DNA of 64,000 bases from Pseudomonadota bacterium (GCA_039184655.1 JBCDAZ010000002.1:8594-72593), one strand, 5' to 3'. Shown: positions 12,435 to 33,625, counted from the first letter of the stretch. The notes: generated by a model not told the origin, from the letters alone. Translations and numbers: made by a program.

Positions 12435-12447
12435 TCGCCCTATGGGT

Positions 12448-13494: not shown

Positions 13495-13602
13495 AACCCC
13501 ATATATCTCGATCTTCTTCGCGAAAACCGACCTGGCCTCCGGCGCTGCGTGTTTTCACAGCGCCGCGCCGGGTCATGTCAATGCAGGATTGGAGGACCCG
13601 CG

Positions 13603-14379: not shown

Positions 14380-14743
14380 CGCTCTACCCGCGCCCGCTCG
14401 CCACTACCGCAAATCCAGACGACGCAGCATCGGGTTCGGCCGGTTTTCTCGACAGCCCAAAGAAGCCGCCGCAAACCCCATGTCGCTTGCCTGCAAAACC
14501 TCCATCGCTTTGCGTTGGGCCTTGCGCAGCGGGCTTGCTGTTTTCGCGGACGCGCTAGATGCGCCCGACACGCCCGCACGGCAGGAACGGCAAGGAACGG
14601 CAGGAAGGGCAAAATCCTCCGCATGAGAGGACGACGCGATCAAAGCCCACAAGGAAGGGTACGGCATGGCCGGCTTTGGCGAAGCGTGTACTCTGGACGC
14701 GGGCCGAAGCCGCATCTCCGGGCCCGGCGACCCGGCCGGCCGG

Positions 14744-15949
14744 TCAGGGCGCTGTGAGCTTTTCGACGAGACCTTTGATCGCCACACGCTGGCCTTCGGG
14801 GTTGAAGAAGTCGCCGCGCACCTGGATATGCGCGGCAAGCGCGCGGCGCAGATCGGCGGCAAGGTCGAGATCCACCGGGTCGGGATCGGTCCAGAACCGG
14901 TCGATGCCGCGCTGATGGGTCAGGCCCGGCACGTCATAAACCGCGTCGCCCAGGCACAGTACGGGGATGCCGTCGCCCAGCGCATGCAACCCGACGGTCG
15001 AGTTGGCCATAATCGCGCCCCTTGAGTTTTGGTTGAGCGGCGCAAGGCGGCTGCTGTCGACCAGATGCACGCGCGGCCCAACCTTGTAGCGTCGCGTCAG
15101 GCCTCGCAGCCGGCGCGGCCAGTTTTCCAGCCCGTTGTCGAGCGGGTGCGTCTTGATCACCAGATGCCGCTCCGGCGGGGCATGCCGGGCGAAAGAGGCA
15201 AGGATCTCATCGAGCATCTCCTCGATATGCGCATAGTCCGAGGAGGTGCGGATCTGATAATCCATCTGAAGCTGCAGCGCGACCAGGTTGTAGGGGAACG
15301 CGCCGGCCAGGCATTGATCGACCAGCGCCTCGTCGCGCCGCGCCGTAAACGCCCGCACGCCCAGGCGCAGGAGCCAGGCTAAGTACTCCGCAACCGGCCA
15401 GTAATACCTGTCTGAGCGGTAAAACGGGTAAAGCCCGCGTCCGAAGACCAGCAACAGATCGTAAAGGACCTCGCGCCAGCTTTCCTCGAAAAAGCTGTGC
15501 GTGTAACGCGGCGTCATATCGGGCTCGGTATGCCCGGCCGCCAGGCGTCGAATGGCCTGCGGGCATCGCGGGAAGGTGGAAAACCGGCCCATCGCCTCGG
15601 GTTCGATGGTCAACCAGTCGGGACGGAGATATCCGTACTCGATCGCGAAGGTGCGGATCCCGCGTGCCTTGGCCAGATCCAGCGCGGCAATATGATAGGG
15701 CAGGCGATCGGCGTAATAGAGGATGTCGGTGACCTTGTGACGTTCGATATAGGCGCTCAGCCAATCGGTCCAGCGCGAGAAGCGACCGCGAAAATGGTCC
15801 GCCCCCGGGCGCGGCCAAAAAAGCCAGTCGCCAGTATGCAAATTGACCCGCTTGATCCGGTGCCCGGCCGCCTCCAGCGCATCGGCCAGCCGGGGCCAGA
15901 GCAGCCCGGGCGGTCCCTGAAGGAACAGAAACACCTTTTGCGAAGGCAT
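14744..15949 (-). CDS. KpsS-like capsule polysaccharide biosynthesis protein (Capsule_synth family, putative beta-Kdo transferase; RkpI/RkpJ-like)
   Basis: Reads FLFLQGPPG...EYGYLRPDWLTIEP...LVIKTHPLDNG...IMANSTVGLHAL...VYDVPGLTH, which parallels E. coli KpsS (LLLQGPMGPFF, EEGYLRPQFITVEEGG, LVIKHHPMDRG, VTINSTAG). Confidence 0.85.
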   Translation of the reverse strand: MPSQKVFLFLQGPPGLLWPRLADALEAAGHRIKRVNLHTGDWLFWPRPGADHFRGRFSRWTDWLSAYIERHKVTDILYYADRLPYHIAALDLAKARGIRTFAIEYGYLRPDWLTIEPEAMGRFSTFPRCPQAIRRLAAGHTEPDMTPRYTHSFFEESWREVLYDLLLVFGRGLYPFYRSDRYYWPVAEYLAWLLRLGVRAFTARRDEALVDQCLAGAFPYNLVALQLQMDYQIRTSSDYAHIEEMLDEILASFARHAPPERHLVIKTHPLDNGLENWPRRLRGLTRRYKVGPRVHLVDSSRLAPLNQNSRGAIMANSTVGLHALGDGIPVLCLGDAVYDVPGLTHQRGIDRFWTDPDPVDLDLAADLRRALAAHIQVRGDFFNPEGQRVAIKGLVEKLTAP

Positions 15950-16047
15950 GGATTTCGCGCGGACCTGTGCCTATTGGGGCTTCACCTCGGTGGCGCTGCT
16001 GGATAGAGAGCGGGGGGAGGGGTGTCAATGAAGGGCCGATCCTGGGG

Positions 16048-17331
16048 ATGGTTGGCACTATGAATGATGCACCGCGAACCGAGGCGGCAGAGCAGGCAGC
16101 GGCACAGGGGCTTGCTGGGCGCGGGCGGCATGTGCTTTTGCTGCAGGGGCCGTTCTCGTGGTTCTTTACCTATCTAGGCCGTGCGCTGCGCGCGCGCGGA
16201 GCGCGGGTCAGCCGCGTGATCCTGTGCCCGGGCGATGCGCTTTTCTGGCGCGGTCCGGGTGCGGTGGCTTATCGCGGCCGACCGGAAGGCTGGCCGGGCT
16301 GGGTTGCGAAGTTCGCCCAGCGCGAGGCCGTCACCGATCTTGTCTGTCTGGGCGATGGGCGTTTCTGGCACCGCGCCGCGATCGCTGCATTGCCCGGCCT
16401 GCGCGCCCATATTGTGGAGCAAGGCTATCTGCGGCCCGGTTGGCTGACAGTCGAAGAAGGCGGGCTGGGGCCCAACGGGCCGTTTCCAAAAACGCCCGAC
16501 GCGATCCGGGCCTTGGCCGACGGGCCCGTACCCGCCGACCCGCCATATTGGAAGACAGGCTTTGCCACCCAGTCGGCGATGGACGTCGCCTTTAATCTGG
16601 CCAACCTTCTTGCGGGGCGGCTGACCTTTCCGCATTTCCGCATCCATACGCTCGACCCGCCCGCCTACGAGTGGGCCGGATGGCTTGGCAAAGCGCTGCG
16701 CTGGCCCTGGCGCCGCGCCGCGCGCGACCGGGCTTTGGCGCGGATCGCCGCCCATCCGGGCCCGGTGTTTCTCTTCGCGCTCCAACTCGAAACCGATTTC
16801 GCAATCCGCCAGCATGGGCCGGAGGGCGGCGTGGAGGGCGCGCTTGCCCGCACTCTTGCATCCTTTGCCGCGCATGCCCCTGACAGGGCCTTGCTGGTCG
16901 TCAAACCGCACCCGCTCGATCCGGGCTGGCTGCCCTGGCGGCGCCAGGCCGAGACTGCGGGCGCCTTGTTCCTTGATGGCGGCGATCTCGGTGCGCTCTT
17001 CAAGCGGCTGACCGGTATCGTGACGGTCAATTCGACCGTGGGCTTGTCGGCACTTGCCGCGGCGCTGCCGGTCGCGGTTCTGGGCCGGGCCATCTACGAT
17101 GTGCCGGGGCTGACCCATCGCTCTGGGCTGGACCGCTTCTGGCGCGCGCCGGAGAGGCCCGAGCCTGCATTGACCCAGGCCTTTTTGCGCGCGCTGAAGC
17201 GCACGTCGCAGATTCCCGGGCATTTCGACGGGCCAGGCGCGCGCCCAGGCGCGGCAGCGCTGGCGGCGCGGGTCCTGCAGCCACGAGCGCCAGCAGCGCC
17301 CAAAGATGAGGCCGCGCATGGCCCGGCATAA
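16048..17331 (+). CDS. Second KpsS-like capsule polysaccharide biosynthesis protein (Capsule_synth family; RkpI/RkpJ-like)
   Basis: Reads VLLLQGPFSWFF...EQGYLRPGWLTVEEGGLGPNG...LVVKPHPLDPG...VTVNSTVGLSAL...IYDVPGLTH. Divergent from the other KpsS-like gene. The start is 16048 or 16060. Confidence 0.8.
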   Translation: MVGTMNDAPRTEAAEQAAAQGLAGRGRHVLLLQGPFSWFFTYLGRALRARGARVSRVILCPGDALFWRGPGAVAYRGRPEGWPGWVAKFAQREAVTDLVCLGDGRFWHRAAIAALPGLRAHIVEQGYLRPGWLTVEEGGLGPNGPFPKTPDAIRALADGPVPADPPYWKTGFATQSAMDVAFNLANLLAGRLTFPHFRIHTLDPPAYEWAGWLGKALRWPWRRAARDRALARIAAHPGPVFLFALQLETDFAIRQHGPEGGVEGALARTLASFAAHAPDRALLVVKPHPLDPGWLPWRRQAETAGALFLDGGDLGALFKRLTGIVTVNSTVGLSALAAALPVAVLGRAIYDVPGLTHRSGLDRFWRAPERPEPALTQAFLRALKRTSQIPGHFDGPGARPGAAALAARVLQPRAPAAPKDEAAHGPA

Positions 17332-18115
17332 CCCGCGCAGCATCGTCTTGACGGGCGCATCCTCGGGCATCGGGGCGGCGCTGGCCGAGCGGCTTGCCCG
17401 CCCGGGCGTCGCAATGCTTCTGATCGGCCGCGATGCCGCCCGGCTTGATGCCGTGGCCGGCGCGGTGCGCGACCGCGGTGCGCAGGCAGCGACGGCGCCG
17501 GTTTCGGTGACCGATGCCAATGCGCTGGCGGCTTGTCTGGTCACCTGGGATGCCGACCATCCGGTGGATCTTCTGGTGGCCAATGCCGGCGTCACCAGCG
17601 GGCGGTCCGGCAAGGACGCGACCGAGCCCCCCGGACAGTCCCGCTGGATCGTCGAGACGAACCTGGTCGGCATGCTCAATACCGTCGAGCCGCTGATCCC
17701 CAAAATGATGGCCCGCAAATCCGGCCAGATCGCGCTTGTCGGATCGATAGCCGCATTGCGCCCGCAGGGCGATGAGCCTTCCTATTCGGCCTCCAAAGCC
17801 GGCGTACACGCCTATGGCGTGGCGATCCGCGGCTGGTTGCGCAAACATGGCATCGCCGTAACCGTGATCAATCCGGGCTTTGTGACAACCCCAATGTCCG
17901 CCCGGCATCTGGGTCCCAAACCCTTCGAGATCGGCGCAGGCGCGGCGGCCGAGATCATGGCCCGTGCGATTGCGCGCCGCCGAAGCCATGTCGCCTTTCC
18001 CTGGCCGCTCGGTCTTCTGACGCGGCTCGATCGGTTCCTACCGCCCAGCCTTTCGGATCGGATCGAGCGACGCTTCGCGGCGCAGATCCTGCCGGATCCG
18101 GGGCGTCAGCCATGA
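17306..18115 (+). CDS. Short-chain dehydrogenase/reductase (RkpH-like)
   Basis: TGASSGIG cofactor motif, NAG, and the YSASKAG catalytic motif. Overlaps the end of the preceding gene. Confidence 0.85.
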   Translation: MRPRMARHNPRSIVLTGASSGIGAALAERLARPGVAMLLIGRDAARLDAVAGAVRDRGAQAATAPVSVTDANALAACLVTWDADHPVDLLVANAGVTSGRSGKDATEPPGQSRWIVETNLVGMLNTVEPLIPKMMARKSGQIALVGSIAALRPQGDEPSYSASKAGVHAYGVAIRGWLRKHGIAVTVINPGFVTTPMSARHLGPKPFEIGAGAAAEIMARAIARRRSHVAFPWPLGLLTRLDRFLPPSLSDRIERRFAAQILPDPGRQP

Positions 18116-18404
18116 TCTGGCCTGCCGAAAAGCCAGCGATAACGGCGGCATACAACCGCAAGTTTGTCTTGCAATCGTTCCAAACAACTGGACAGCTTGC
18201 CAGGACGCATGAGATACACAAAACTGGACTTTGCATGAGGCCGGGCCACGCTCTCCGGCGAGACAAGAAAACAGGCGCAAAGCGGGACAGTTTGCGCAAC
18301 ACGATAAAGAGAACCTTCAGACCCTGCGTTTGGATCTGCGAGGCGCAGATGCGCCATGCCGATCCGTGTTCGGGGTTCCAAGCGGCAGGACGGGAACGGT
18401 GAGC

Positions 18405-21400
18405 ATGAGTGAACGCACCGGCCAATACGATATCGCGGTTACGGGCTATGCCTGCCGCCTGCCGCAAGCGGCGACGCCCGAGGCGTTTTGGCGCGTGCTG
18501 GCGGACGGGCGATGCGTGATCACAGAGGTGGGTGCCGACCGGTTCGAAACCGGGCTTGTCTACGACCCCGATCCCGCCGCGATCGGCAAGAGCTACAGCA
18601 TCGCTGCCGGCCAGATCGACGATATTTGGGGCTTTGATCCTGGTTTCTTCAGCATTTCGCCGCGCGAAGCGGCACAGATGGATCCCCAGCAGCGCGTCCT
18701 TTTGCAAGTGGTGTGGGAGGCGCTGGAACATGCAGGCCTAACCGGGCCCGGCCTTGACGGGGCTGGGACAGGCGTTTTCGTCGGCGCGTCGAGCTCGGAC
18801 TACTCGGCCCATTTTCTAACCGATCTGGCCAGGGTCGATACGCAGTTCATGACCGGCAACACCTTGTCGATCATCGCCAACCGCATCTCCTACCTGCTCG
18901 ATCTCGGCGGCCCTAGCTTCACGGTCGATACGGCCTGCTCATCGTCCTTTTACGCGCTGCACGCAGCCTGCCAGACGTTGATGTCTGGCGAAATCGATAC
19001 CGCAATCGTCGGCGGCGTGAACCTGCTGGTCGCGCCGGGACCGTTTGTGGGGTTTTCGCGCGCAACGATGCTGTCGCCAAGCGGCCTGTGCCGCGCTTTC
19101 GACGCCGGCGCAGACGGTTATGTCCGGTCCGAAGGGGCGGTCGTCTTCGTATTGCGGCGGCTTAAGGCGGCGTTGGAGAACGGCGAGATGGTCCGCAGCG
19201 TGCTCGCCGGCTCCGGGATCAATTCGGACGGGCGCACGGTGGGCATGTCGATGCCGTCATCGCAGCGACAGGCGGATCTCTTGCGCAGTATGCAGGCGCA
19301 ATTCGGCATCGCGGCCGACGATATTGCCTTTATCGAAGCGCATGGCACCGGTACGCCGGTCGGCGATCCGCTGGAAGCCCATGCAATCGGATCCGTTTTC
19401 GGGCAGGCGCGACAATCCCCGCTGCCGATCGGCTCGGCCAAGACGAATGTCGGGCATCTTGAGCCTGTCTCGGGCCTGGTCGGTCTGCTTAAAGCTCAAC
19501 TCGCATTGGAAAAGGGTGTTTTGCCGGCCTCGCTGCATGTCGAAGCGCCCAACCCCAATATCGACTTTCCGGCCCTGGGGCTGGAGATCGCGACGCAGGC
19601 GCGCGATTTGCCGGCACGCGACACACCCTGGTTTGCCGGGGTGAACTCCTTTGGTTTTGGCGGTGCCAACGCCCATGCGCTTTTGCGACAGCCGCGCGCG
19701 GACGAGCGCCCGGCATGCGCGCCCGTGCCGTCTGTTTGCGCGCTAACGCTGAGTGCAGCGAGCGCCGACAGCCTCACCGTGCTTGCCGCCTCGATGCGCG
19801 ACAGCCTATCAAAGGCAAGCGAAGCGGAGGCCGCTCGGCAAGTCAATGCGGCAGCCTGGCGGCGGGCCACGCTTCAGCACCGCGTCGTGGTTCTGGGCAC
19901 GGATCGGGACACGCTGCTTGCCGGCCTCGACGCGTTCGGCGCAGGCGAAAAATCACCGCTTGTGATCGAGGGCAAAGCCAACCGTACGGCTGGGAAAACG
20001 GCGTTCCTCTTTTCCGGCAATGGTTCGCAATGGGCGGGGATGGGCCATCACCTTCACGCAACCGACCCCGTTTTTCGCGACAGCTTCGACGATATCGCCG
20101 CGCGCTTTGCCAAGATCGGCAGGGTCGACCCGTCAGCGCTGCTTTTCGACGGCGATCTGGCCGAGCGGTTGGGATCGTCGCAAGTTGCGCAACCTGTGCT
20201 TTTTGCCGTGCAGATGGCCCTTGTCGATGCGCTGGCCGCGCGGGGCTTGCAACCCGATGCTGTGGCCGGGCATTCGGTCGGCGAGGTTGCCGCCGCGACA
20301 ACGGCCGGGATCATCGACCGCGCCGACGCCGTTCGCCTGGTGCACACCCGGTCGGTCGCGCTGGACGGTCTGCGCGGCAGCGGCGGCATGGCCGCAGTGT
20401 CGGCCGATGCCGCGCAGGTCGAGGCGGCCCTGGCCGAAGCCGGCATTGCCGGGGTCTCGATCGCCGGGATCAACAGCCCCCGCAGCGTGACTGTCTCGGG
20501 CGATGCCGGGCAGATCAAGGCGCTTCTGGCCTGGCTGAGGCGCAACCGGCGCGTCGCCGGCGTGATGTTGGATGTGGAGATCCCCTACCATTCGGCGTCG
20601 GTCGAACCGTTGCGTCGTCGGATGATCGAGGATCTCAAGGGGCTTCGGCCGTCGGCAAGCACGGTCGTCTACGCCTCTTCCACAACCGGCCAGATCGCCC
20701 ACGGCCTGACCCTCGATACCGATTACTGGTGGCGCAATGCGCGCGAGGTCGTGCGCTTTGAAGATGCCGTCGACGCGCTGTGCGAGGCGGGCTGCCGAAC
20801 ATTTGTCGAAGTCTCGCCGCGCCCCGTGCTGGCGGCATATGTCCGCGACAAGCTGCGGGTGACCGGGCATGCCGGCAGCGTGGCCCGCACCATGGACCAA
20901 GGCAAACGCGCCGACACCGGCGCCGCTGAAATGGTCGCCCATGCCTTTACCTTGGGTGCCGGCATCGATCGTCGCCGTTTTTTTGGTCCCAAGGCAGCGA
21001 TGGGTGCCTCCTTGCCCAACTACCCCTGGGCCAATGTGGCGGTGCGGGCACAGCCATCGACGGCCCATGCCGACGTTTGGGGTATGGGCGATTTCCACCC
21101 GCTTATCGGACGGGCTGTGATTCGGGGCAATTTCTGTTGGGAAGGCGATGTGAATGTGCGCAGCTTGCCCTGGCTGGCCGACCATGTCGTTGACGGGGTG
21201 CCGGTGTTTCCGGCCGCTGGATTTGCTGAGATGGCGCTGGCCGCCGGGACCCGGGCGCTGCCGGGGGTGGCGGTGGAGTTGACGGATTTGGAGATCGTTC
21301 GCCCCCTGGTGCTCGATCGCGATGGCGGGGTCGATACGCGCGTGACCGTCGATCCGCAGACCGGCGCGGTGCGTATCGAGGCCCGCCACAGGCTGGCGGA

Positions 21401-24400
21401 AGAGGGCTGGGCGCTGCATGCGATCGGCACAGTGCGGGCCGAAGCGTCGGATCGGCGCTTGCAGATCGATGCGCCCGTCGAAGACGCAGCGGTCGAGACC
21501 GCGCCTGCAGCGCTCTACGGCCTGCTCGATGACATCGGCCTTGCCTACGGGCCGGCCTTCCGGCTTGCCGATGCGCTGCGCAGCGATGCCGCGCGGGCCG
21601 AGGCGGTTATCCGTGCCGAGAACGGCCCCCAAGATTCGCGCTTTGCCTTGAACCCGGCGCATCTCGATGCCGCGATGCATGCGGTTTTTCCGATCCTTAT
21701 GGCGCATGCGTCGGCCGGAAGGGCCGAGGGTACGGTGTTTTTGCCGGTGCGCATCGGAAGGCTGCGTCTGGCCCGGCCCGGCACCGCTGTTGGTCTCGTC
21801 CGGGTCGCCGTTACCAGGCACTCCCCCCGCGGTGTCGATCTTGCGCTGGAGCTTTTAGGCGCCGACGGCTCGGTCGTGGCGGTGGTCGAGGGGCTGCGCC
21901 TGCAAGCGACCCGGCTGCGCGGACGCGCGGGGCATGAGGCGCTGACCTGGCAGCAACGCCTGGTCCGGCTGCGCGAACCCGATGGGCGTGTGCACCTGCC
22001 CTCGGGCTGGCGCGCGCCGGACAACCGGTTGCGCGCGCTGGGGGTTGCGACCGTAGACGAGCCCGATCCGGATGCCGGGCTGCTGTTGGTCGATGCGGCT
22101 TGCCGGCGCCTGGCCTGGGACAGCGTCGCAGCGCTTGTCGGCCCGCAGGGGCGCCTTCTCGGAGCAGCCAACCCGGTGCTCGCTCGGCTTCTTGTCGCAC
22201 TGGAAGAGGACGGTCTTTTCGAACCGGACGAAACCGGCGGCCGGATCCTTGCCGACTGCCCCTACCCCACGATGTCCGAAATCGTGGCCTCGATGACGCG
22301 CGAGGCGCCGGAGCGAGCGCAGGAGCTGATGGAGCTTATGCGCCTGGAGCGGCTCTTGCCGACGCTCGCGGCCGATCCTGACGGGCTTGCGGATGTGCAG
22401 CCCGCGCCAAGCGGAATGGATCTTTCTGCCGGACAGCGACAGATCTGGCAAAGCATGGGGCGCGTCGCTTCCGATCTGGCTCAGGGATGGTCGGCTAAGG
22501 AGCGCTTGAGCGTCCTTATCCTGGGCGAAGCGCCGGCGACGATCGTCGACACGCTATGCCGGGCAGAGCGGGCCTGCGACGTCGTCGTCGCCCATACCGA
22601 GGAACGGGTGGTGGAGCGGTTACGCCAAACGCTTCCCGCCGCGCCCGGGCTGCAGGTGGTACCGCTGGCAGAGGCGCTGCGGCCGTTTCGCTTCGACGTC
22701 GTGCTCTGCGTCGACCTGCTGGACGGGCTTGACGAGGCCGGCCGCGATGCGCTTTCGGCCAGCCTTGCGCTGTCGGGCCTACTTGTCGCTGCCATGACGG
22801 AACCCTCGCTGATCCAGGCGCTGCGCCAGATTGTGCGCGAGCGCGGTGCCGCCGCCCGTGCTTCGTCGCGCGCTGCCGATGTCGAAACGGCGCTTGCGGC
22901 AGGGTTTCGTGACATCACGGCGCAAACGCTGGCCACCGGCGCGGTCGAGGCCCGCATTCTCACGGCCCGGCCTCGCCACCAAGCGGTTCGGGCCAGCCTG
23001 CCGGTGCCGGCCGAGGGGCCACGGCGCCTGGCGCTCTTGGTGCTGACCGACCGGCGCGAGGAGAACCGCCGCATCGCAGCCCTTTTGGAGGCCTCGCTGG
23101 TCACGGCCGGGCTCGACGTGCGGCAATGCCTCGCCGGCGATCGGATCGCATTGGAGGAGGCGGTCAGCGAGGTCGTGCATCTGGCCGACTTGCCGGATGC
23201 CGACAGCGATCCGATGGACACGGCGACCCGGCGCATCGAAACCTTGCGGGACATTCTCGACGCTCCGGCCCAGCCCGAGCGGGTCTGGGTCGTCACCCGT
23301 GGCGGCGCACCCATCGACGGTGCCGTCGAATCGCGCGCGGCCCCCCAGGACATGCCCCAGACCAACGATGCCGCGATTTGGGGCGCCACGCGCGTGGTTA
23401 CCAACGAATACCCAGCGATCGAGTTTCGCCAGATCGATTTTCCGGTCGCAACCGCCCCGGAGACGCTGGCCGAGAACATCTGTTCCTTGATCATGTCGGG
23501 CACCGATGAGGCGGAGATCGTCTTCGACGAGGCCGGCTTCTTGGCGCCGCGGGTCGAGCCTGGTCCAGATATCGAGGATGCCGGCCAGGGCCGTGCGCTC
23601 CAGCTTCGGATCGGCCAGCAAGCGGTTCTCGACACCCTGTCCTGGCGCCCCGCTGAGCGTCGCGACCCGGGCCCGGGAGAAATCGAAATCGAGATCCGGG
23701 CGACCGGTCTGAACTTTCGCGATCTGATGTGGGCGCAGGGGCTTTTGCCCGACGAGGCGCTGGAGGATGGCTTTGCCGGTGCGACGCTGGGGATGGAGTG
23801 CGCGGGCATCGTGGCAAAGGCCGGCAAGGGCAGCGCTTTTCGCCGCGGCGATGCGGTGATCGCCTTTGCCCCAGCTTGCTTTTCGACCCATGTGACGGTG
23901 GCCTGCGAGGCCGTGGCGCGACTTCCGGCCGGGGCGACGCTTGAGACCGCGGCCGCGATCCCGACGATTTTTGTAACGGCGCAATATGCGCTGGCCACGC
24001 TGGCCAATCTGCGACGCGGGGACGTGCTGCTTGTGCATGGCGGCGCCGGTGGGGTGGGCCTGGCCGCGGTTCAGATTGCCAGACGTCTGGGCGCTGAAGT
24101 GATCGCCACCGCGGGCACGCCGGAAAAACGGCGGCTCTTGCGCCATCTGGGCGTTCGGGCGGTCTTTGACAGCCGCAGCCTGGCCTTTGCCGAGGAGGTG
24201 ATGGCAGAAACCGCCGGGCGCGGGGTCGATGTGGTTTTAAACTCGCTGGCCGGCGAGGCGATGGAGCGCTCTTTGTCCTGTCTCAAGCCTTTTGGACGGT
24301 TTGTCGAGCTGGGCAAGCGGGACTTTTACGCCAATACGCGCCTGGGTCTGCGGCCTTTTCGCCGGAACCTGAGTTATTTCGGCGTCGATGCCGATCAGCT

Positions 24401-25823
24401 CTTGCGCGACCGTCCCGATCTTGCGGAAACGCTGTTGTCGGAGGTTGCTGAAGGCTTTGCCGATGGTGCCTACACAGCGCCGCCCTGCCAGATCTTCGAG
24501 GCGGCCGAAATCGTCGATGCCTTCCGTCTGATGCAACAGTCGCGCCATATCGGCAAGGTCATCCTGCGCCCGCCAGCGCTGCCTGCCGCGGCTCCGACCG
24601 CCTTGGTACGGAAACCGGGCGCGCCCGTACGCGGGGCCTGGCTTATCGTCGGCGGGCTCGGCGGGTTCGGCCTCGCTACGGCCCGGCAGTTGGCACGCGA
24701 GGGTGCCGAGGCGATCTGGCTTTCCAGCCGCTCGGGCCGTACGCGCGAGGCGGATAAGACCGCTCTGGAGGCGCTGCGCGCCACGGGCATTCCGGTGATG
24801 CTGCGCGCCGCCGATACAACCGATGCCGCAGCGACCCAAGCGCTGATCAACGAGATTGCGGCGGGCGACGTGCCGCTGCGTGGCGTTGTCCATGCGGCGA
24901 TGCTGCTCGACGACGCACTCTCGGCCGATCTCGACACCGATCGGATATCGGCCGTCATGGCGCCCAAGATCGCGGGTGCATATCAGCTCGACCGGCTGAC
25001 GCGCGAACTCGATCTGGACCATTTCGTGCTGTTCTCTTCGGTTACGACGCTCTTTGGCAATCCCGGGCAGCTGCCCTACGTCGCCGCCAACAGCTATCTG
25101 GAAAGGTTGGCCGTCGAAAGGCGGGCCGCGGGGCTACCCGGATTTGCAATCGCCTGGGGCCCGATCGCCGATCAGGGCTATCTTGCGCGCGACGAGCGGA
25201 CGCGGACGCTTTTGTCGCGCAAGCTGGGCGCGCGGATGCTCACAGCGGCCGAGGCCCTTGCAATTTTTGCACGCCTTCTGAAGACGCCGCCCGATGCCGC
25301 CGTGCTTTCGGTCGCGCCGATGCGTTGGCGGCTTCTTGCCTCGGATCTCAAACTGCTCTCCACACCGCTCTTCCACCGGATCGAAATGGAGGAGGGTGGT
25401 GGCATGAGCGATGGCGTGGCCGATCTGCTCGCCCTGATCGACGGGCTCGACGATGAGGCGGCTGCGGGTAAAATCACCGAGGCGCTGGTCGCCGAGACGG
25501 CCCGTATCCTTAGACAGCCAGCAACGGAAATCGACCCCTACCAACCGTTGACCGAGCTGGGCTTTGACTCGCTCATGGCAATGGATCTTAAGCTTGCGGC
25601 CGAGGAGGCGATGGGCGTGACAATTCCGATCCTGTCCGTAGGCGACGGGATGACCCTGGCCCAGCTTGCTACGCGCATCGTCGGACAGCTTCGCGGCGGC
25701 GGCGGACGGGTCACCGGCGACACCGATGGCGATAAAATCGTCAGCCAGCATCTTGGCGCGCAGGACGCCGAGATCGACGATGATCTGGTGCGCAGGGTAA
25801 GCGAGCGGGCCAATCAGATTTGA
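18405..25823 (+). CDS. Type I polyketide synthase, fully reducing: KS-AT-DH-(pseudo-MT/structural region)-ER-KR-ACP (RkpA-like)
   Basis: KS: DTACSSS (Cys 18936-18938), HGTGT, GHLE. AT: GHSVGE (Ser 20274-20276). DH: HPLIGR (His 21096-21098) and DHVVDGVPVFPAAG. ER: LVHGGAGGVGLAAVQ. KR: GGLGGFG...YVAANSY. ACP: LGFDSL (Ser 25569-25571). No thioesterase domain. Confidence 0.95.
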   Translation: MSERTGQYDIAVTGYACRLPQAATPEAFWRVLADGRCVITEVGADRFETGLVYDPDPAAIGKSYSIAAGQIDDIWGFDPGFFSISPREAAQMDPQQRVLLQVVWEALEHAGLTGPGLDGAGTGVFVGASSSDYSAHFLTDLARVDTQFMTGNTLSIIANRISYLLDLGGPSFTVDTACSSSFYALHAACQTLMSGEIDTAIVGGVNLLVAPGPFVGFSRATMLSPSGLCRAFDAGADGYVRSEGAVVFVLRRLKAALENGEMVRSVLAGSGINSDGRTVGMSMPSSQRQADLLRSMQAQFGIAADDIAFIEAHGTGTPVGDPLEAHAIGSVFGQARQSPLPIGSAKTNVGHLEPVSGLVGLLKAQLALEKGVLPASLHVEAPNPNIDFPALGLEIATQARDLPARDTPWFAGVNSFGFGGANAHALLRQPRADERPACAPVPSVCALTLSAASADSLTVLAASMRDSLSKASEAEAARQVNAAAWRRATLQHRVVVLGTDRDTLLAGLDAFGAGEKSPLVIEGKANRTAGKTAFLFSGNGSQWAGMGHHLHATDPVFRDSFDDIAARFAKIGRVDPSALLFDGDLAERLGSSQVAQPVLFAVQMALVDALAARGLQPDAVAGHSVGEVAAATTAGIIDRADAVRLVHTRSVALDGLRGSGGMAAVSADAAQVEAALAEAGIAGVSIAGINSPRSVTVSGDAGQIKALLAWLRRNRRVAGVMLDVEIPYHSASVEPLRRRMIEDLKGLRPSASTVVYASSTTGQIAHGLTLDTDYWWRNAREVVRFEDAVDALCEAGCRTFVEVSPRPVLAAYVRDKLRVTGHAGSVARTMDQGKRADTGAAEMVAHAFTLGAGIDRRRFFGPKAAMGASLPNYPWANVAVRAQPSTAHADVWGMGDFHPLIGRAVIRGNFCWEGDVNVRSLPWLADHVVDGVPVFPAAGFAEMALAAGTRALPGVAVELTDLEIVRPLVLDRDGGVDTRVTVDPQTGAVRIEARHRLAEEGWALHAIGTVRAEASDRRLQIDAPVEDAAVETAPAALYGLLDDIGLAYGPAFRLADALRSDAARAEAVIRAENGPQDSRFALNPAHLDAAMHAVFPILMAHASAGRAEGTVFLPVRIGRLRLARPGTAVGLVRVAVTRHSPRGVDLALELLGADGSVVAVVEGLRLQATRLRGRAGHEALTWQQRLVRLREPDGRVHLPSGWRAPDNRLRALGVATVDEPDPDAGLLLVDAACRRLAWDSVAALVGPQGRLLGAANPVLARLLVALEEDGLFEPDETGGRILADCPYPTMSEIVASMTREAPERAQELMELMRLERLLPTLAADPDGLADVQPAPSGMDLSAGQRQIWQSMGRVASDLAQGWSAKERLSVLILGEAPATIVDTLCRAERACDVVVAHTEERVVERLRQTLPAAPGLQVVPLAEALRPFRFDVVLCVDLLDGLDEAGRDALSASLALSGLLVAAMTEPSLIQALRQIVRERGAAARASSRAADVETALAAGFRDITAQTLATGAVEARILTARPRHQAVRASLPVPAEGPRRLALLVLTDRREENRRIAALLEASLVTAGLDVRQCLAGDRIALEEAVSEVVHLADLPDADSDPMDTATRRIETLRDILDAPAQPERVWVVTRGGAPIDGAVESRAAPQDMPQTNDAAIWGATRVVTNEYPAIEFRQIDFPVATAPETLAENICSLIMSGTDEAEIVFDEAGFLAPRVEPGPDIEDAGQGRALQLRIGQQAVLDTLSWRPAERRDPGPGEIEIEIRATGLNFRDLMWAQGLLPDEALEDGFAGATLGMECAGIVAKAGKGSAFRRGDAVIAFAPACFSTHVTVACEAVARLPAGATLETAAAIPTIFVTAQYALATLANLRRGDVLLVHGGAGGVGLAAVQIARRLGAEVIATAGTPEKRRLLRHLGVRAVFDSRSLAFAEEVMAETAGRGVDVVLNSLAGEAMERSLSCLKPFGRFVELGKRDFYANTRLGLRPFRRNLSYFGVDADQLLRDRPDLAETLLSEVAEGFADGAYTAPPCQIFEAAEIVDAFRLMQQSRHIGKVILRPPALPAAAPTALVRKPGAPVRGAWLIVGGLGGFGLATARQLAREGAEAIWLSSRSGRTREADKTALEALRATGIPVMLRAADTTDAAATQALINEIAAGDVPLRGVVHAAMLLDDALSADLDTDRISAVMAPKIAGAYQLDRLTRELDLDHFVLFSSVTTLFGNPGQLPYVAANSYLERLAVERRAAGLPGFAIAWGPIADQGYLARDERTRTLLSRKLGARMLTAAEALAIFARLLKTPPDAAVLSVAPMRWRLLASDLKLLSTPLFHRIEMEEGGGMSDGVADLLALIDGLDDEAAAGKITEALVAETARILRQPATEIDPYQPLTELGFDSLMAMDLKLAAEEAMGVTIPILSVGDGMTLAQLATRIVGQLRGGGGRVTGDTDGDKIVSQHLGAQDAEIDDDLVRRVSERANQI

Positions 25824-25831
25824 GGCGTGTG

Positions 25832-27178
25832 ATGACCGACAACCCCCTTTTGGACTCGTTGCGTCGGGCCAGAAGCGCGCGCCGCCAGCGTGGGCGGCAG
25901 GATGGCGCGCCGCTGCCGCAAAAACCGGCCGATCCGGCCCAGCTCAAAGCGCATGATTTTGCCGATCTGCCGGCCAACAAACAGGTCAAGATGACCAAGG
26001 CTGTGGCCGAGCTGACCGGGCTTGCCAGCCCGTTTTTTCGCAATCATGTGGTCACTTCGACCGCGGGCGCTCGGATCAATCAGACCGATTGCATCAATTT
26101 TGCATCCTACAACTATCTGGGCCTAAACGATCATCCGAAGGTGCGCGCAGCGGCGCGCGAGGCGGTCGATCGCTGGGGCGTCTCTGCCGGCGCAAGCCGC
26201 CTGGTTGGGGGCGAACACCCCTACCACCGCCCGCTGGAGGCGCGTTTGGCCGAGGCGCTGGGCACCGATGCTTGCCTCGTCATGGTTTCGGGTCACGCCA
26301 CCAATGTAACAACCATCGGTACGCTGATGGGGCCGCGTGATCTCGTGCTGGTCGACAGCCTGATCCATAACTCGGTGTCCGAGGGCATCCGCCTGTCGGG
26401 CGCGCAGCGCATCAGTTTCCCCCATAACGATTGGGGCTGGGTCGACGAAACGCTGCGGCGCAGCCGAAAGCAGTACGACAATGTGCTGATCGTGGTCGAA
26501 GGGCTTTATTCGATGGATGGCGACAGCCCCGATCTGGCCCGTTTCGTCGAGGTTAAGGCGCGCCATGCGGCCTGGCTGATGGTCGACGAAGCGCATTCGC
26601 TGGGTGTGCTGGGCGAGACGGGTCGCGGCATTGCCGAAGCTCAGGGCGTGGATCCCGCCTCGGTCGAGATCTGGATGGGAACGCTCTCCAAGACCTTGTC
26701 CAGCTGCGGCGGCTATATCGCCGGGCCAAGCGCGCTGATCGAGGTGCTGCGCTACACAGCGCCGGGCTTTGTGTTTTCGGTCGGCCTGGCAGCGCCGCTG
26801 GCGGCAACCGCGCTTGCCGCGCTCGATGTCATGCTCGACGAGCCCGCGCGAATTGCCCGGCTTGAGGCGAATGGGCAACGCTTGCGCCGCCGGGCCGTCG
26901 AGGCGGGGCTCGATACCGGCTATTCCGAAGGCCATGCGGTCACCCCGATCATCATTGGCGACAGCTTCCGCACGGCGATGATCGCCGATGATATCTTGCG
27001 CGACGGCGTAAACGCTCTGCCGATCATCGCCCCCGCCGTGCCGGACAAGCAAGCGCGGTTGCGGTTCTTTCTGACGTCGGAGCATACCGGCGATCAGATC
27101 GACAGGGCCGTGGCCGTGACCGCGGCTGCGGTCGAGGCGCGCAAGGGCGAGGACGTGCTTTCGCGCTTGAAAAACTGA
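25832..27178 (+). CDS. Alpha-oxoamine synthase family PLP enzyme (8-amino-7-oxononanoate synthase / serine palmitoyltransferase-like; RkpG-like)
   Basis: Reads NFASYNYLGL...SGHATN...DEAHSLGVLG...GTLSKTL, with the PLP lysine codon at 26690-26692. The gene begins 9 nt after the PKS stop. Confidence 0.9.
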   Translation: MTDNPLLDSLRRARSARRQRGRQDGAPLPQKPADPAQLKAHDFADLPANKQVKMTKAVAELTGLASPFFRNHVVTSTAGARINQTDCINFASYNYLGLNDHPKVRAAAREAVDRWGVSAGASRLVGGEHPYHRPLEARLAEALGTDACLVMVSGHATNVTTIGTLMGPRDLVLVDSLIHNSVSEGIRLSGAQRISFPHNDWGWVDETLRRSRKQYDNVLIVVEGLYSMDGDSPDLARFVEVKARHAAWLMVDEAHSLGVLGETGRGIAEAQGVDPASVEIWMGTLSKTLSSCGGYIAGPSALIEVLRYTAPGFVFSVGLAAPLAATALAALDVMLDEPARIARLEANGQRLRRRAVEAGLDTGYSEGHAVTPIIIGDSFRTAMIADDILRDGVNALPIIAPAVPDKQARLRFFLTSEHTGDQIDRAVAVTAAAVEARKGEDVLSRLKN

Positions 27179-27432
27179 CGCAATATCTCCTGCACCCGGG
27201 GCGCTTGCGGCAATGCGCGCCCCCCGGCCGTTTCGATGCAAATCCGCCGCACGCGCTGCGACAAGGCCCATTTTGGGCGCGCGGCAAACGTGCTCCAGAG
27301 CACAGCCCTTCTCCGCCAGGCGACTTATCTGGGGGCGTCGATACGGATCGCCATTGGCGCGCAGAGTCCGCCCGTGGCATCCTGACCCCGCTATTGCCTT
27401 CCGCGCTGGAGGATACCGTGACACATCGCCCG

Positions 27433-28209
27433 ATGCCTCGCCCCTTCATGCCGCTCTGTGCCGCCGCCAGCCTGCTTCTGGCAGCTTGCGGCCCGCAACA
27501 AGACCCGCAACAAGACCCGCAACAAGACCCCCGGGAACCGGTGCAAGTGGCACCGATCCCAGGCGCCGTGGATCAAAGCTGGCCGCCGACCGATGAGCCG
27601 CTTTCGATCGCACAGCGCGTGGAGATGCAGCGCCTGCTCAGCGCCCTCGGCTATTCGGTCGGTCCGGCGGACGGCAATCCCGGCGCGCAGACCCGCTCGG
27701 CGATCCGCGACTATCAGGCCACGACGCGGCGTCGTGCCGATGGCGTTCTGTCGACCGAGCTTTTGGCCAGCCTGCGCGCTGACGGGCAGCGCAACGGCAT
27801 CCGGCTTGCTGTACCGACCACAGCGCCTGAGCCGAACGCCCCGCTCGCGCCCGCGGCAACGGTTCGCCCGCCGCTCGATACCGCACCCGCGCGGCGTCGG
27901 TTGCCTGGCGGGCGCCCGGACAATCCGCCCGAGCCGGTGCGTATCGCGGCACCTCCGCCCACCGCATCGGTCGATCGTGCGCCGCAAACGGCACCGGTGA
28001 CGCAAGCATCGGCACCCGATGCGGTTGCGACCCCCAATTCGGTTGCGCCGACAGATGCGCCCCCCGCCGCGCCCCCCGCCGCGCCCGCAACTGCGCCCGC
28101 CGCTTCGCCGGACCGGGCCCGCGACCGGCCCGTCGAGACGCCCGAGCCGACCTTCGTGCGGCGGCGTGTGCCGACCGACACCGATACCGATTCCGGCGGC
28201 TGGAACTGA
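27433..28209 (+). CDS. Lipoprotein with a peptidoglycan-binding (PG_binding_1-like) domain and a Pro/Ala-rich tail
   Basis: Lipobox LLLAAC. QQDP x3 repeat. The PG-binding-like segment reads MQRLLSALGYSVGPADGNPGAQTRSAIRDYQ. Long disordered P/A-rich C-terminus. Confidence 0.75.
   Translation: MPRPFMPLCAAASLLLAACGPQQDPQQDPQQDPREPVQVAPIPGAVDQSWPPTDEPLSIAQRVEMQRLLSALGYSVGPADGNPGAQTRSAIRDYQATTRRRADGVLSTELLASLRADGQRNGIRLAVPTTAPEPNAPLAPAATVRPPLDTAPARRRLPGGRPDNPPEPVRIAAPPPTASVDRAPQTAPVTQASAPDAVATPNSVAPTDAPPAAPPAAPATAPAASPDRARDRPVETPEPTFVRRRVPTDTDTDSGGWN
27493..27528. repeat. 12-bp tandem repeat x3 (CCGCAACAAGAC), in frame just after the lipobox of the PG-binding lipoprotein (QQDP x3)
   Basis: Three perfect copies. 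Confidence 0.95.
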
Positions 28210-28260
28210 CGCTCCGGCATCTCGGCGACGTTGCGCATCCTGGCTGCAGGAGGATTTGTC

Positions 28261-30705
28261 ATGCGACCCAACCGGTTTTCGATTTCGGCGCTTGCTGCGT
28301 TTTCGGTGGCATTCGGGCCGCAAGCGCTGGCCGCCCAAACCGTCGATCGACCCGCCGAGGCCACGATCGCCCCCTTTGTTCGGCAGGCCGATCCCCAGGC
28401 CGCGCAGCGTTACGCGATTGTGGTGGGAAATGACCGCTACCAGCATGTGGCGCCGCTTTTTAATGCCCGGGCCGATGCGGCCCTGGTGGCCGAGTTTCTG
28501 CGCAGTTCGGGGTTTTTTGTTGTCGAGCGCTACGATCTCGACGCACGCGGTTTTGAAGCCTTGTTGCGCAAGGCGCTCTTTGAGATCGAGGCCGATGCAG
28601 AGGTGCTGTTCTACTATGCCGGCCACGGCTTTCAGATCGGCCGGCGTAACTATGTGGTACCGGTGGATGCCGATCTGAAAAGCAGCGCGGATGTCGCCTT
28701 CGAGACGGTGACGCTGGACAGTCTCGTTGCGATTCTGGGCGCGCGGGCGCGTCTGCAGGTGGTTTTTCTCGACAGCTGCCGCGACAATCCTTTTGCCGAT
28801 CAGACGACCCTGGCCGGGCTCTCCTCGATCCCGCAACCGACTAAGACCGGGTATGCGCCGATGTCGGCGCCGATGAACACGCTCCTGTCCTTTTCCACCG
28901 CGCCGGGCGCCGTCGCCATCGACGGGGCGGGGGCCAACAGCCCCTTCACCGGCGCGCTGATCGATGTTGCCTCAAGTGCGCCGGGGCGAAGCCTGACCCG
29001 GGTGCTAGAACAGGTGCGCCGGCAGGTTTACCGCGAAACCGAGGGGCGGCAGATCCCTTGGGAAAGCTCAACGCTGGTTGAGGATTTCAGCTTTGCCAAC
29101 GCTGTTGCCGAAGACGCGACCCCCACGCCCCGACCTGCAAAGGCAACGCCCATGCGGCGGTTGACCGAGGTGCCGGCAAGGGTGACGCGGCAAGCAGCGG
29201 ATCCTGCAGCGCCCATTGCGCTGGAAGCGGGGCTCGACCGCCGCGTCGCCATCGGCGCTGCCTTGCGCGCGGCGCTGGGCGACAGGCCGCCGGGCGGGCT
29301 CGTACTCGCTCAGACCGAAGGAGAAGGGCGCCTCATTCTCGCACCGGACCAGCGCGCCGAGCGCAGCTATCTGGGTAACGCGCTCGATGTCGCGACCCTG
29401 GACATGTTGGTCTACGAGCCCGAGCACCGCCAGCAACCGGCCGGCCCGCGGCCCGCGGACCATCGCCGGACCGCGCGGTTTACGCTGACCGGGCCGGAGG
29501 GCTATCGCCGCGACGTGGCGCTGACGCTGGAGGCGGATGCCTGCGACTGGCATGCCGGCGATCATTTGGACCCCGAGGGGGTGGGCATCGTGCGCTATGC
29601 AAACGAGATCGCGCCCGAGGAAGCCCGCGCGGCCTGCCAAGCCTCGATAGCGGCCTCCCCAGACACGGCCCGGTTTTACTACCAGCTTTCCCGGGCGCTG
29701 GTCGCGCTGACCGCCTACGAGGCGGCAGAAACGGCGCTGCAGGCCGCGCAAGCCCGCAACTACACCCGCGCCTGGTACGGGCTGGGTCAGCTCGCCGGCG
29801 CCCGCCGCGCCATAACCGGTGGCCGCGACGATCGGGCCGCCGACGAGGCCGCCTACCCCTTTTACTATGAGGGGGTGCGGCGCGGCGATCCCTACGCATT
29901 TTACGCGCTGGGCAAGCAATTGCTGCGGTTTTCCGGCAATGACGAGATGCAAAGCATCGGATTCGACCTGATGAACCGGGCGCTCGAGGTGGGACACACC
30001 TTTGCAATGAACGAGCTGGGGTACTTTTTTCTACAGGAAGGCAGCGCGCATTACGCCCCCAGACGGGCGCTGCAATATCTGCGCGAATCTGCGGCGCGCG
30101 AGGATATCTACGGCTATTTCAATCTCGGCCGCGTCTATGATCGCGGCCTTGGCGAGACGGCGCCGGACGCGGCCTTGGCGGAAAATTGGTACCGCCGGGC
30201 CGTGCTTGGCGGGCACCCGTCCGCCCCGCGCCGTCTGGCCGATATGATCGTGCAGGGTCGCCTGGGTGTGCCGGCGGCCGCCGATATAGCCGAGGCGCTG
30301 GCGCTTTACGATCTGGGCCTGGAGCGGGGCGATGCGCTTGCGGGCACCCAAGCGGCCTGGCTGATCGCCACGGCCCACCCGGCCGACAGCACGCTTGGCG
30401 ATGCGGCGTGGCGTGCGGCCAAGGCCGGCACCTTGCGCAACGCGGCCGCCCGGGCCGATGCGCGCGATCTGCTGGTGCAGATGCCGGCAGCGGCGCTCGA
30501 CGACGCCATCCGGCTGTCGCTGGTTGCGCTGAAGGCCTTGCCGGAGGGATCTGCCCCCGCCCCGCAAAGCGTCGCGGTGCTGACCGCGCTGACTGCGCTG
30601 GCCGCGCAAGCCGGCAAACCCTTGCCGGACGCCGCGGTCGACCGGCTGCTGGTTCTGGCCGCGCTTTTTTGGGAGCGTTCGCGCTTCCGGGTCGATCTTT
30701 ACTGA
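28261..30705 (+). CDS. Secreted caspase-family (peptidase C14) protein with C-terminal Sel1/TPR-like repeats
   Basis: Signal peptide ALAAFSVAFGPQALAAQ. Caspase dyad contexts are YYAGHGFQ (His 28624-28626) and VVFLDSCRDNPF (Cys 28777-28779). C-terminal Sel1-like units include AWYGLGQL, AFYALGKQ, AMNELGYFF and GYFNLGRVYDRGLG. Confidence 0.8.
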   Translation: MRPNRFSISALAAFSVAFGPQALAAQTVDRPAEATIAPFVRQADPQAAQRYAIVVGNDRYQHVAPLFNARADAALVAEFLRSSGFFVVERYDLDARGFEALLRKALFEIEADAEVLFYYAGHGFQIGRRNYVVPVDADLKSSADVAFETVTLDSLVAILGARARLQVVFLDSCRDNPFADQTTLAGLSSIPQPTKTGYAPMSAPMNTLLSFSTAPGAVAIDGAGANSPFTGALIDVASSAPGRSLTRVLEQVRRQVYRETEGRQIPWESSTLVEDFSFANAVAEDATPTPRPAKATPMRRLTEVPARVTRQAADPAAPIALEAGLDRRVAIGAALRAALGDRPPGGLVLAQTEGEGRLILAPDQRAERSYLGNALDVATLDMLVYEPEHRQQPAGPRPADHRRTARFTLTGPEGYRRDVALTLEADACDWHAGDHLDPEGVGIVRYANEIAPEEARAACQASIAASPDTARFYYQLSRALVALTAYEAAETALQAAQARNYTRAWYGLGQLAGARRAITGGRDDRAADEAAYPFYYEGVRRGDPYAFYALGKQLLRFSGNDEMQSIGFDLMNRALEVGHTFAMNELGYFFLQEGSAHYAPRRALQYLRESAAREDIYGYFNLGRVYDRGLGETAPDAALAENWYRRAVLGGHPSAPRRLADMIVQGRLGVPAAADIAEALALYDLGLERGDALAGTQAAWLIATAHPADSTLGDAAWRAAKAGTLRNAAARADARDLLVQMPAAALDDAIRLSLVALKALPEGSAPAPQSVAVLTALTALAAQAGKPLPDAAVDRLLVLAALFWERSRFRVDLY

Positions 30706-30870: not shown

Positions 30871-30999
30871 TTTTTCCGGCTTGGCTTGCGAGGAGCGTTG
30901 TGACACATCTGCCCGGTGCTGCCGGGTAGCGGCGGGCTTGTGGCGGGGAAGTATCGGGCAGTGACGGCGGGCGAAGAAGCGGCGACCCCGGTGGATGCG

Positions 31000-32516: not shown

Positions 32517-32590
32517 AGGCGGGGTGCAGCAGGCCTTTCTGGAGGTCTTTATGCAGGCCGCCGCGGCGGCCTTTGGGGATGCGTCCCAGA

Positions 32591-32626
32591 ATCAGTCTCG
32601 GGATCAGTCTCGGGATCAGTCTCGGA
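32591..32626. repeat. 12-bp tandem repeat x3 (ATCAGTCTCGGG) between livF and livH
   Basis: Direct reading. It would encode QSRD x3 if the longer livH start were used. Confidence 0.9.
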
Positions 32627-33600: not shown

Positions 33601-33625
33601 GCGAAATAGAGCCGAAAGGACGTGC

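Follow-up and report, generated by a model that had tools for sequence, protein, structure and literature searches.

What does a bacterium make with a large polyketide synthase (PKS) that carries no domain for releasing its product? The question is raised by a 64,000-nucleotide stretch of DNA from a member of the Pseudomonadota (GCA_039184655.1, JBCDAZ010000002.1:8594-72593; G+C content ~66%). In this stretch, hereafter called the window, a gene for a PKS resembling fatty acid synthase (FAS) is followed at once by a gene for an alpha-oxoamine synthase (AOS). An initial annotation treated the two genes as an isolated pair predicted to make an amino-lipid. The view of an isolated pair fails, because two KpsS-like genes flank it and KpsE- and KpsT-like genes lie downstream. 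The pair is part of a known cassette, called rkp-1 (rkpA/G/H/J) in one setting and wcb (wcbR/T/P/O) in another.

Judged by its sequence, the region from 14744 to 27178 is very probably a capsule module of the rkp-1/wcb type, because its proteins are homologous to RkpA, RkpG, RkpH, and RkpJ, its genes are syntenic with those of Sinorhizobium, and capsule-export genes are among its neighbors. Our full reading, to which we assign a probability of roughly 55%, is that this is a capsule cassette whose PKS, AOS, and short-chain dehydrogenase/reductase (SDR) make an amino-lipid carrier.

The genetics of the rkp-1/wcb PKS cassette date from the 1990s, and the cassette is needed for capsules that matter both to symbiosis with legumes and to virulence in melioidosis. 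The window cassette shows how widely spread and how stereotyped the PKS-AOS-SDR-KpsS unit is, and it sharpens the chemical prediction that the AOS off-loads the chain as an amino-ketone, which is then reduced. The remaining interest of this widespread module lies in its lipid product, which lacks definition in the literature searched.

A capsule cassette of the rkp-1/wcb type

The genes of the cassette, and two export genes farther downstream, are the following.

14744-15949, minus strand: KpsS/RkpJ-like paralogue 2, 401 amino acids, divergent from the operon; Pfam Capsule_synth, E = 2e-61; NCBIfam KpsS, 201 bits
15967-17331, plus strand: KpsS/RkpJ-like paralogue 1, likely start ATG 16048; Pfam Capsule_synth, E = 4e-56; NCBIfam KpsS, 147 bits
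17306-18115, plus strand: RkpH-like SDR, candidate 3-ketoreductase, 269 amino acids; Pfam adh_short, E = 9e-39; motifs TGASSGIG and YSASK
18405-25823, plus strand: RkpA/WcbR-type iterative type I PKS, 2472 amino acids
25832-27178, plus strand: RkpG/WcbT-type AOS, 448 amino acids; pyridoxal phosphate (PLP) lysine Lys287, with H179, D252, H255, and R409
36100-37455, plus strand: KpsE/BexC/CtrB-family inner-membrane export protein; TIGR01010, 180 bits, E = 5e-53; two terminal transmembrane segments
37462-38127, plus strand: KpsT/VexC-like ATPase of the ATP-binding cassette (ABC) type

The boundaries of the PKS gene (ATG at 18405 to TGA at 25821-25823) and of the AOS gene are those given in the initial annotation; the gap between the two genes measures 8 nucleotides, not the 9 claimed. 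The sequence GAGG overlaps the PKS stop codon, ahead of the AOS start at 25832. Farther upstream, the end of the gene for KpsS-like paralogue 1 overlaps the start of the SDR gene by 26 nucleotides.

The window PKS is 36% identical to RkpA of Sinorhizobium chiapasense (blastp, residues 10-2451 of 2472). The AOS is 52% identical to Sinorhizobium RkpG, the SDR 32% to RkpH, and each of the two KpsS-like proteins 40% to RkpJ. With locus L001, one of the closest relatives, identity reaches 50% for the PKS, 61% for the SDR, and 56% for KpsS-like paralogue 1 and its syntenic counterpart; among closer relatives in general, syntenic SDRs are 45-61% identical to that of the window. The SDR falls into a single similarity cluster that spans 37 loci and includes RkpH, and in most of these the gene lies directly after that for the AOS.

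E. coli-type KpsS was considered and rejected as an assignment for the two KpsS-like proteins, which score 147 and 201 bits against model NF050054, whose cutoff is 600. Sinorhizobium RkpJ (206 bits) also falls under this cutoff. By these profile scores, the window proteins are family-level homologues and not KpsS equivalogs. A phmmer search of both proteins against the PDB gave no match.

Relatives of the AOS were sought in one genome per species. At least 420 were found, and 80 loci were kept; neighbors were counted in the 65 loci with a complete PKS open reading frame (ORF), after clustering of the flanking ORFs. The closest AOS relatives among the 80 loci are from Paracoccaceae (Pikeienuella/'Paludibacillus' and Albimonas) and are ~63% identical, and a relative from Paroceanicella profunda in the protein database reaches 72%. 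Many loci are from Ensifer/Sinorhizobium, at 51-52% identity. More than 60 PKS homologues are collinear with that of the window, with lengths of 2400-2550 amino acids.

The association of the two enzymes is tight. In ~74 of the 80 loci, a gene for a PKS homologue immediately precedes that for the AOS, and the linkage is kept across orders of Alphaproteobacteria. The predicted start of the AOS frame lies within the end of the PKS frame in 34 of 65 loci, with an overlap of 4 nucleotides in 26 and of 1 nucleotide in 8; these overlapping frames indicate translational coupling. Other frequent neighbors encode Capsule_synth proteins (40 of 65 loci, with two paralogues in 15), SDRs (37 of 65), and KpsD/RkpU-like Poly_export/SLBB proteins (30 of 65). 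An RkpI-like sulfatase-family gene is present in 18 of 65 loci and so is not universal, and KpsT and KpsM genes occur in 10 loci each. Among the clustered neighbors of these 65 loci, neither thioesterases nor acyltransferases form a conserved family near the PKS. The same five genes (PKS, AOS, SDR, and two divergent KpsS-like genes) recur in the closest relatives (L001, L005, L006, L011, L012, and L027), where the SDR/KpsS block instead comes after the AOS gene, on the opposite strand.

In the rkp-1 region of Sinorhizobium meliloti and S. fredii (rkpA[BCDEF]-rkpG-rkpH-rkpI-rkpJ, with rkpU upstream), one cluster likewise holds genes for a single large PKS resembling FAS, an "acyltransferase" of the AOS type, an SDR, and a KpsS-like protein. 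In the S. chiapasense locus (L055), the order is PKS (2502 amino acids), AOS, SDR, a 530-amino acid sulfatase-family protein, and Capsule_synth, with Poly_export upstream. This is the published Sinorhizobium arrangement, rkpU / rkpA-rkpG-rkpH-rkpI-rkpJ (PMC7902896). The window cassette is a Paracoccaceae-type version of the known rkp-1/wcb capsule-lipid cassette and nothing categorically new. As read from the DNA, its variant traits are a changed gene order (a KpsS-like gene and the SDR gene stand upstream of the PKS gene), two KpsS-like paralogues instead of one, and the absence of RkpI. It also lacks an RkpU homologue, and its host is Paracoccaceae-like rather than a rhizobium.

Sinorhizobium RkpI itself (L055, 12389-13981) matches Pfam Sulfatase (E = 3e-24), the family to which phospho-head-group transferases of the LtaS/EptA/OpgB type belong. 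The protein was reportedly described by Kiss in 1997 as being without homology. The window and its closest relatives have the second KpsS-like paralogue in place of an RkpI-type gene.

The same enzyme families are found in the wcb cluster for capsular polysaccharide I of Burkholderia pseudomallei (WcbR, WcbT, WcbP, WcbQ, and WcbO), a likeness drawn from annotation. In the capsule locus of strain K96243, BPSL2787 encodes the AOS, BPSL2789 the PKS WcbR, BPSL2790 a sulfatase-type membrane protein, BPSL2791 an SDR, and BPSL2792 KpsS (PMC4275268). WcbR and RkpA have been treated as one PKS family in orthologous capsule clusters (PMC3908369). Two proteins of the Burkholderia cluster, a deacetylase resembling LpxC and the sulfatase-like membrane protein, have no counterpart in the window. 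With the group 2 capsule systems of E. coli and Neisseria, the window shares KpsS-family proteins and export components of the KpsE/KpsT type; it differs from them in lacking a two-domain KpsC and in having the PKS/AOS/SDR lipid module, which E. coli lacks.

The KpsE-like protein is 39% and the KpsT-like protein 64% identical to products of genes that adjoin the cassette in L001. The two genes, which lie 9 kb downstream of the window cassette, probably belong to the same capsule system, with somewhat less certainty for the KpsE-like one. It is this context that suggests a capsule role in the window, and the genetic phenotype comes from Sinorhizobium only, where rkp-1 has been tied genetically to production and export of the K-antigen polysaccharide, KPS (PMC4881576, PMC7902896).

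Active sites of the PKS and the AOS

The domains of the PKS are a ketosynthase (KS), an acyltransferase (AT), a dehydratase (DH), a pseudo C-methyltransferase (pseudoCMeT), a structural ketoreductase (pseudoKR), an enoylreductase (ER), a catalytic ketoreductase (KR), and an acyl carrier protein (ACP), all on the plus strand.

18429-19544, plus strand: KS, residues 9-380; C178, H313, H351, and DPQQR; by Pfam and alignment
20004-20897, plus strand: AT, residues 534-831; GHSVGE (S624) and IPYH; by Pfam and alignment
21096-21911, plus strand: DH, residues 898-1169; H927xxxGxxxxP, LAYGPAF, and D1088xxxH
22122-22994, plus strand: pseudoCMeT, approximately residues 1240-1530 (approximate boundaries); motif I reads LILGEAPAT, catalytic His absent
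23091-23654, plus strand: pseudoKR subdomain, approximately residues 1563-1750; the alignment with MAS (5bp4) starts at residue 1563; profile matches to the AmphB KR and the MAS pseudoKR
23670-24566, plus strand: ER, residues 1756-2054; HGGAGGVG
24633-25169, plus strand: KR, residues 2077-2255; GGLGGFG, K2188, S2212, Y2225, and N2229
25482-25679, plus strand: ACP, residues 2360-2425; phosphopantetheine attachment at Ser2389 in DS2389L

Pfam finds KS, AT, DH, ER, KR, and ACP in the sequence originally proposed. The likeness of this order to that of animal FAS also holds, and fungal highly reducing PKSs likewise have the order KS-AT-DH-pseudoCMeT-pseudoKR-ER-KR-ACP. Pfam shows nothing beyond the ACP, so that a thioesterase (TE), reductase (R), or condensation (C) domain is missing, as claimed, and Ser2389 stands 83 residues from the C terminus, close to the ~80 estimated earlier.

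Catalytic residues were checked by aligning the window protein (MAFFT) with 39 collinear homologues from related loci. C178, H313, and H351 of the KS, S624 of the AT, H927 and D1088 of the DH, the glycine-rich motifs of the ER and KR, K2188, S2212, Y2225, and N2229 of the KR, and DS2389L of the ACP are all invariant in the 40 sequences. The initial annotation was right to call the active sites intact. An inactive reductive domain, which it had named beforehand as fatal to its proposal, is not seen, because the ER and KR motifs are intact on alignment.

Malonyl-type AT domains pair a hydrophobic residue following the Ser with an aromatic one in the "F" slot. In the window AT, the GHSVGE motif together with an aromatic side chain in that slot points to malonyl as the predicted extender; from a malonyl-type AT, an unbranched chain is expected. 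The specificity motif itself (20577-20588, residues 725-728) reads IPYH in the window, whereas nearly all homologues have YPFH (39 of 40 with Tyr726, 36 of 40 with Phe728), and neither form equals the textbook HAFH or YASH.

The best PDB relative of the whole PKS is the mycobacterial mycocerosic acid synthase, MAS (9d2y, 897 bits), followed by animal FAS (8vf7/2vz8, ~630-650 bits), DEBS modules, and LovB. MAS and animal FAS, the best structural relatives, are likewise iterative and fully reducing. Animal FAS also carries a pseudo-methyltransferase between its DH and pseudoKR. MAS, in contrast, lacks a methyltransferase-like insert and uses methylmalonyl units, FAS has a C-terminal thioesterase, and an AOS serves for release in neither.

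The initial annotation had noted an extra region between the DH and ER. This region exists, although it spans ~580 amino acids (residues 1171-1752, nucleotides 21915-23660) rather than the ~500 (21950-23560) first estimated, and it comprises a C-methyltransferase-like domain and a structural KR half. MAS aligns to residues 9-1171 of the PKS and resumes at approximately residue 1563, which leaves ~390 amino acids with no MAS counterpart. The window linker alone gave no phmmer match to PDB sequences, and against Pfam it gave no methyltransferase match, with a noise match to PqqD only. A profile of the linker built from the 40 homologues and searched against PDB sequences, in contrast, matches the C-methyltransferase of CurJ (5thy, E = 7e-30), the citrinin CMeT (5mpt, 1.6e-15), the CMeT-pseudoKR region of LovB, and PsoA, and its distal part matches the AmphB KR, Lsd14, and the MAS pseudoKR. 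The CurJ match settles the fold of the insert by profile comparison.

The stretch VLILGEAPATIVD (residues 1370-1382) aligns with motif I for S-adenosylmethionine (SAM) binding but lacks GxGxG. Nor does the window PKS, which reads CVDLLDGL at the place of the NVLHAT motif, have the catalytic His. The earlier description of this stretch as a degraded SAM-binding site was correct. An active PKS C-methyltransferase was considered for the insert and rejected, given that it has no SAM motif I (E/DxGxGxG), no catalytic His, and no Pfam methyltransferase match. Pfam Methyltransf_12 is found in 13 of the 40 homologues and not in the window copy. A GxGxG-like SAM motif is kept in L032, L071, L062, and L033, and the catalytic His in L040, L045, L046, and L071. 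Some lineages of the RkpA family may make C-methylated chains.

The AOS is a fold-type I PLP enzyme whose residues H179, D252, H255, K287, and R409 align with catalytic residues in structures of serine palmitoyltransferase (SPT) and of BioF/KBL. They correspond to the PLP-stacking His (H179), the Asp and His at the pyridine N and O3' (D252 and H255), the Schiff-base Lys (K287), and the Arg that binds the carboxylate (R409). All five are invariant in the 80 relatives, and the PLP lysine is thus intact, as was claimed. Its class was judged from NCBIfam equivalog cutoffs and PDB bit scores. The best NCBIfam match is bioF (TIGR00858), with 333.6 bits against a cutoff of 426.45, so that by score the AOS is not a bona fide BioF. 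Scores against the SPT models NF047599, NF047600, and NF047603 are 284, 274, and 213 bits (cutoffs of 500, 640, and 670), and those for KBL (289 bits), ALAS (225 bits), and CqsA (174 bits) also remain under cutoff. Sinorhizobium RkpG likewise falls under every AOS equivalog cutoff. Against the PDB, SPT structures score ~206 bits, level with the best BioF/KBL matches, and SphA is weak at 82 bits. NCBI gives the closest relatives of the AOS generic names only.

At the PLP-stacking histidine, RkpG-type proteins have His-Asn-Ser (residues 179-181, 26366-26374), with the Asn in 78 of 80, where structures of BioF, KBL, and SPT have His-Ala-Ser. They also have SGH or SGY where other AOS proteins carry SGF or TGF. 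These family-specific motifs may mark specificity for the amino acid or for acyl-ACP. Within the 64-kb window, neither a second AOS nor any bio gene was found.

A candidate lipid carrier and its rivals

The cassette suggests the following route. The PKS would iterate with malonyl extenders and full reduction, building a saturated, unbranched chain on its own ACP, with the methyltransferase-like domain as a presumed structural relic. The AOS would then free the chain in a decarboxylative Claisen condensation, dependent on PLP, with Gly, Ala, or Ser. From the resulting 2-amino-3-oxo lipid, the SDR would make a long-chain amino alcohol by reducing the 3-keto group. This amino alcohol, perhaps modified further, would serve as the acceptor or carrier on which KpsS-like transferases start a glycolipid containing 3-deoxy-D-manno-octulosonic acid (Kdo). 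KpsMT/KpsE/KpsD-type machinery would export the glycolipid with the capsule polymer.

The AOS is proposed as the release enzyme because the PKS has no release domain, the AOS appears to be translationally coupled to it, and fumonisin biosynthesis provides a precedent. In the fungal fumonisin-type pathway, the ketone is reduced after release to a sphinganine-like amino alcohol. The release step has been described for Fum1p and Alt1p, which have no TE and are released by an AOS with L-alanine or glycine (PMC4936691). The fumonisin and AAL-toxin systems, and also those for sphingofungin and myriocin, follow the same logic: a TE-less KS-AT-DH-(C)MeT-ER-KR-ACP synthase, an AOS (Fum8p), and a 3-ketoreductase. 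They differ in being eukaryotic, in making free toxins, in having an active methyltransferase, and in lacking a capsule context, and they are not close sequence relatives of the window proteins. PLP domains of the AOS type also occur embedded within PKS assembly lines (PMC3870968).

Bacterial SPT and 3-ketosphinganine reductase offer a second likeness, in the AOS fold, the catalytic residues, and the predicted SDR-type reduction of a 3-keto group. Here, however, the acyl group is predicted to come from a chain held on a dedicated PKS, where SPT draws on acyl-CoA or a discrete acyl-ACP, and no ceramide synthase gene is nearby. By analogy with the fumonisin system, we infer that AOS off-loading followed by SDR reduction is the best mechanistic reading. 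The amino-lipid interpretation of the initial annotation thereby stands as to its architecture, the absent release domain, the coupling of PKS and AOS, the place of the SDR, and the fumonisin precedent, and its product itself is a prediction pure and simple. Taken separately, we regard amino-lipid chemistry in the window cassette as a tentative proposal with slightly less than an even chance of being right.

A "specific lipid carrier" for KPS was proposed as the product of rkp-1 by Kiss et al. in 1997, as the proposal is paraphrased in a later article (PMC4881576). An amino alcohol in this role would represent a second, non-glycerolipid class of anchor or primer for ABC transporter-dependent capsules, made through PLP-dependent off-loading of a PKS. 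It would revise the view of anchoring in some group 2-like capsules and provide a defined target in Burkholderia. A broader generalization extends the proposal to hundreds of Alpha- and Betaproteobacteria, in which the RkpA/RkpG/RkpH-type module would supply KpsS-type Kdo transferases with their acceptor, a sphingoid-like, long-chain amino alcohol of polyketide origin; this appears possible and yet rather doubtful.

Several points weigh against an amino-lipid carrier made by this cassette. The sequence does not show which amino acid is used, how long the chain is, or with what starter unit it begins. E. coli-type KpsS uses a lyso-phosphatidylglycerol acceptor, and by the title of a 2005 report from Fraysse, KPS of S. 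meliloti 1021 is said to carry a "phospholipid anchor"; neither calls for an amino-lipid. Our literature search returned no identified product for any member of the RkpA/RkpG or WcbR/WcbT families. In approximately one-third of the related loci, neither a Capsule_synth gene nor an SDR gene lies within 10 kb. In the window, five unrelated genes for an ABC transporter of branched-chain amino acids (30916-36081) part the cassette from kpsE and kpsT, and homologues of KpsM, KpsD/RkpU, and RkpI are absent from the 64 kb by tblastn. As to precedence, we found no paper in the open literature that states or tests amino-ketone or amino-alcohol chemistry for RkpA/RkpG or WcbR/WcbT, the primary rkp-1 papers being outside this search.

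The strongest competitor keeps the capsule cassette and changes the chemistry. The PKS chain would be moved as an acyl group, or freed as an acid, into a glycerophospholipid-type anchor, and the AOS would use another acyl thioester or make a head group or side product. The S. meliloti anchor, known here at the level of a title, fits this alternative, as does the glycerolipid acceptor of the KpsS paradigm, and the RkpI-type sulfatase-family protein in Sinorhizobium and Burkholderia suggests phosphoglycerol or phosphoethanolamine chemistry. However, an acyl transfer of this kind finds no conserved acyltransferase or thioesterase beside the PKS. Moreover, the tightest partner of the PKS is the AOS, in overlapping frames, which is hard to explain unless the AOS takes the PKS product. 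We consider a glycerophospholipid-type anchor a serious rival, though an unlikely one.

Considerably less probable is a stand-alone secondary-metabolite cluster whose product would be a free amino-lipid, such as a toxin or a CAI-1-like or fumonisin-like signal, independent of any capsule. Fungal clusters of PKS, AOS, and reductase do yield free sphingoid analogues, and the third of related loci that have no capsule genes within 10 kb consist of the PKS-AOS pair only. Against this, the KpsS-like gene whose stop overlaps the SDR start is operonic with the cassette, capsule export genes dominate the conserved neighbors, and Sinorhizobium genetics link rkp-1 to production and export of KPS. Finally, that the AOS is a housekeeping BioF lying by chance next to a FAS-like PKS is very improbable: bioF is its best NCBIfam match and automatic JGI annotation labels relatives "8-amino-7-oxononanoate synthase," but the score is below cutoff and nearly equal for KBL and SPT, NCBI names are generic, the linkage to the PKS is conserved with overlapping frames, the motif is HNS and not HAS, and bio genes are missing nearby.

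Outlying relatives and the remainder of the window

RkpG-like AOS proteins with 50-55% identity to that of the window also occur outside the Alphaproteobacteria (L074, L052, L076, and L057), in Igneacidithiobacillus and in metagenome-assembled genomes (MAGs) assigned to Myxococcota, Pirellulaceae, and Nitrospira. The Igneacidithiobacillus locus has a PKS gene upstream. None was detected in the available DNA of the MAG loci, of which L052 is a 6.4-kb contig, and the MAG assignments may be binning artefacts.

The KpsE- and KpsT-like genes open a polysaccharide locus (36100-45762) that continues with a family 2 glycosyltransferase (GT2), an unassigned 339-amino acid ORF, a sugar-nucleotide 4,6-dehydratase, a nucleotidyltransferase, and two GT4 genes. 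Neither Pfam matches nor transmembrane segments were found for the unassigned ORFs at 39577-40596, 39859-40614, and 46115-47167. A scan of 14000-28500 for promoters and terminators gave no signal above shuffled controls.

Directly after the AOS gene come two genes apparently unrelated to the cassette. The first, at 27205-28209, encodes a proline-rich protein with a PG_binding_1 domain. The second, at 28231-30705, encodes a caspase-like protein of 824 amino acids (Peptidase_C14) that has TPR/Sel1 repeats and weakly matches the model "caspase, EACC1-associated type." Neither gene recurs beside the cassette in the 80 related loci. Upstream of the cassette, 314-14379 holds housekeeping genes, including those for an AddB/AddA-type helicase-nuclease, a thioredoxin, a FolC-like and an AccD-like protein, and a zinc-type quinone oxidoreductase, and ends with that for the alphaproteobacterial cell-cycle regulator TrcR (13357-14379). 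These genes are consistent with a chromosomal alphaproteobacterial location.

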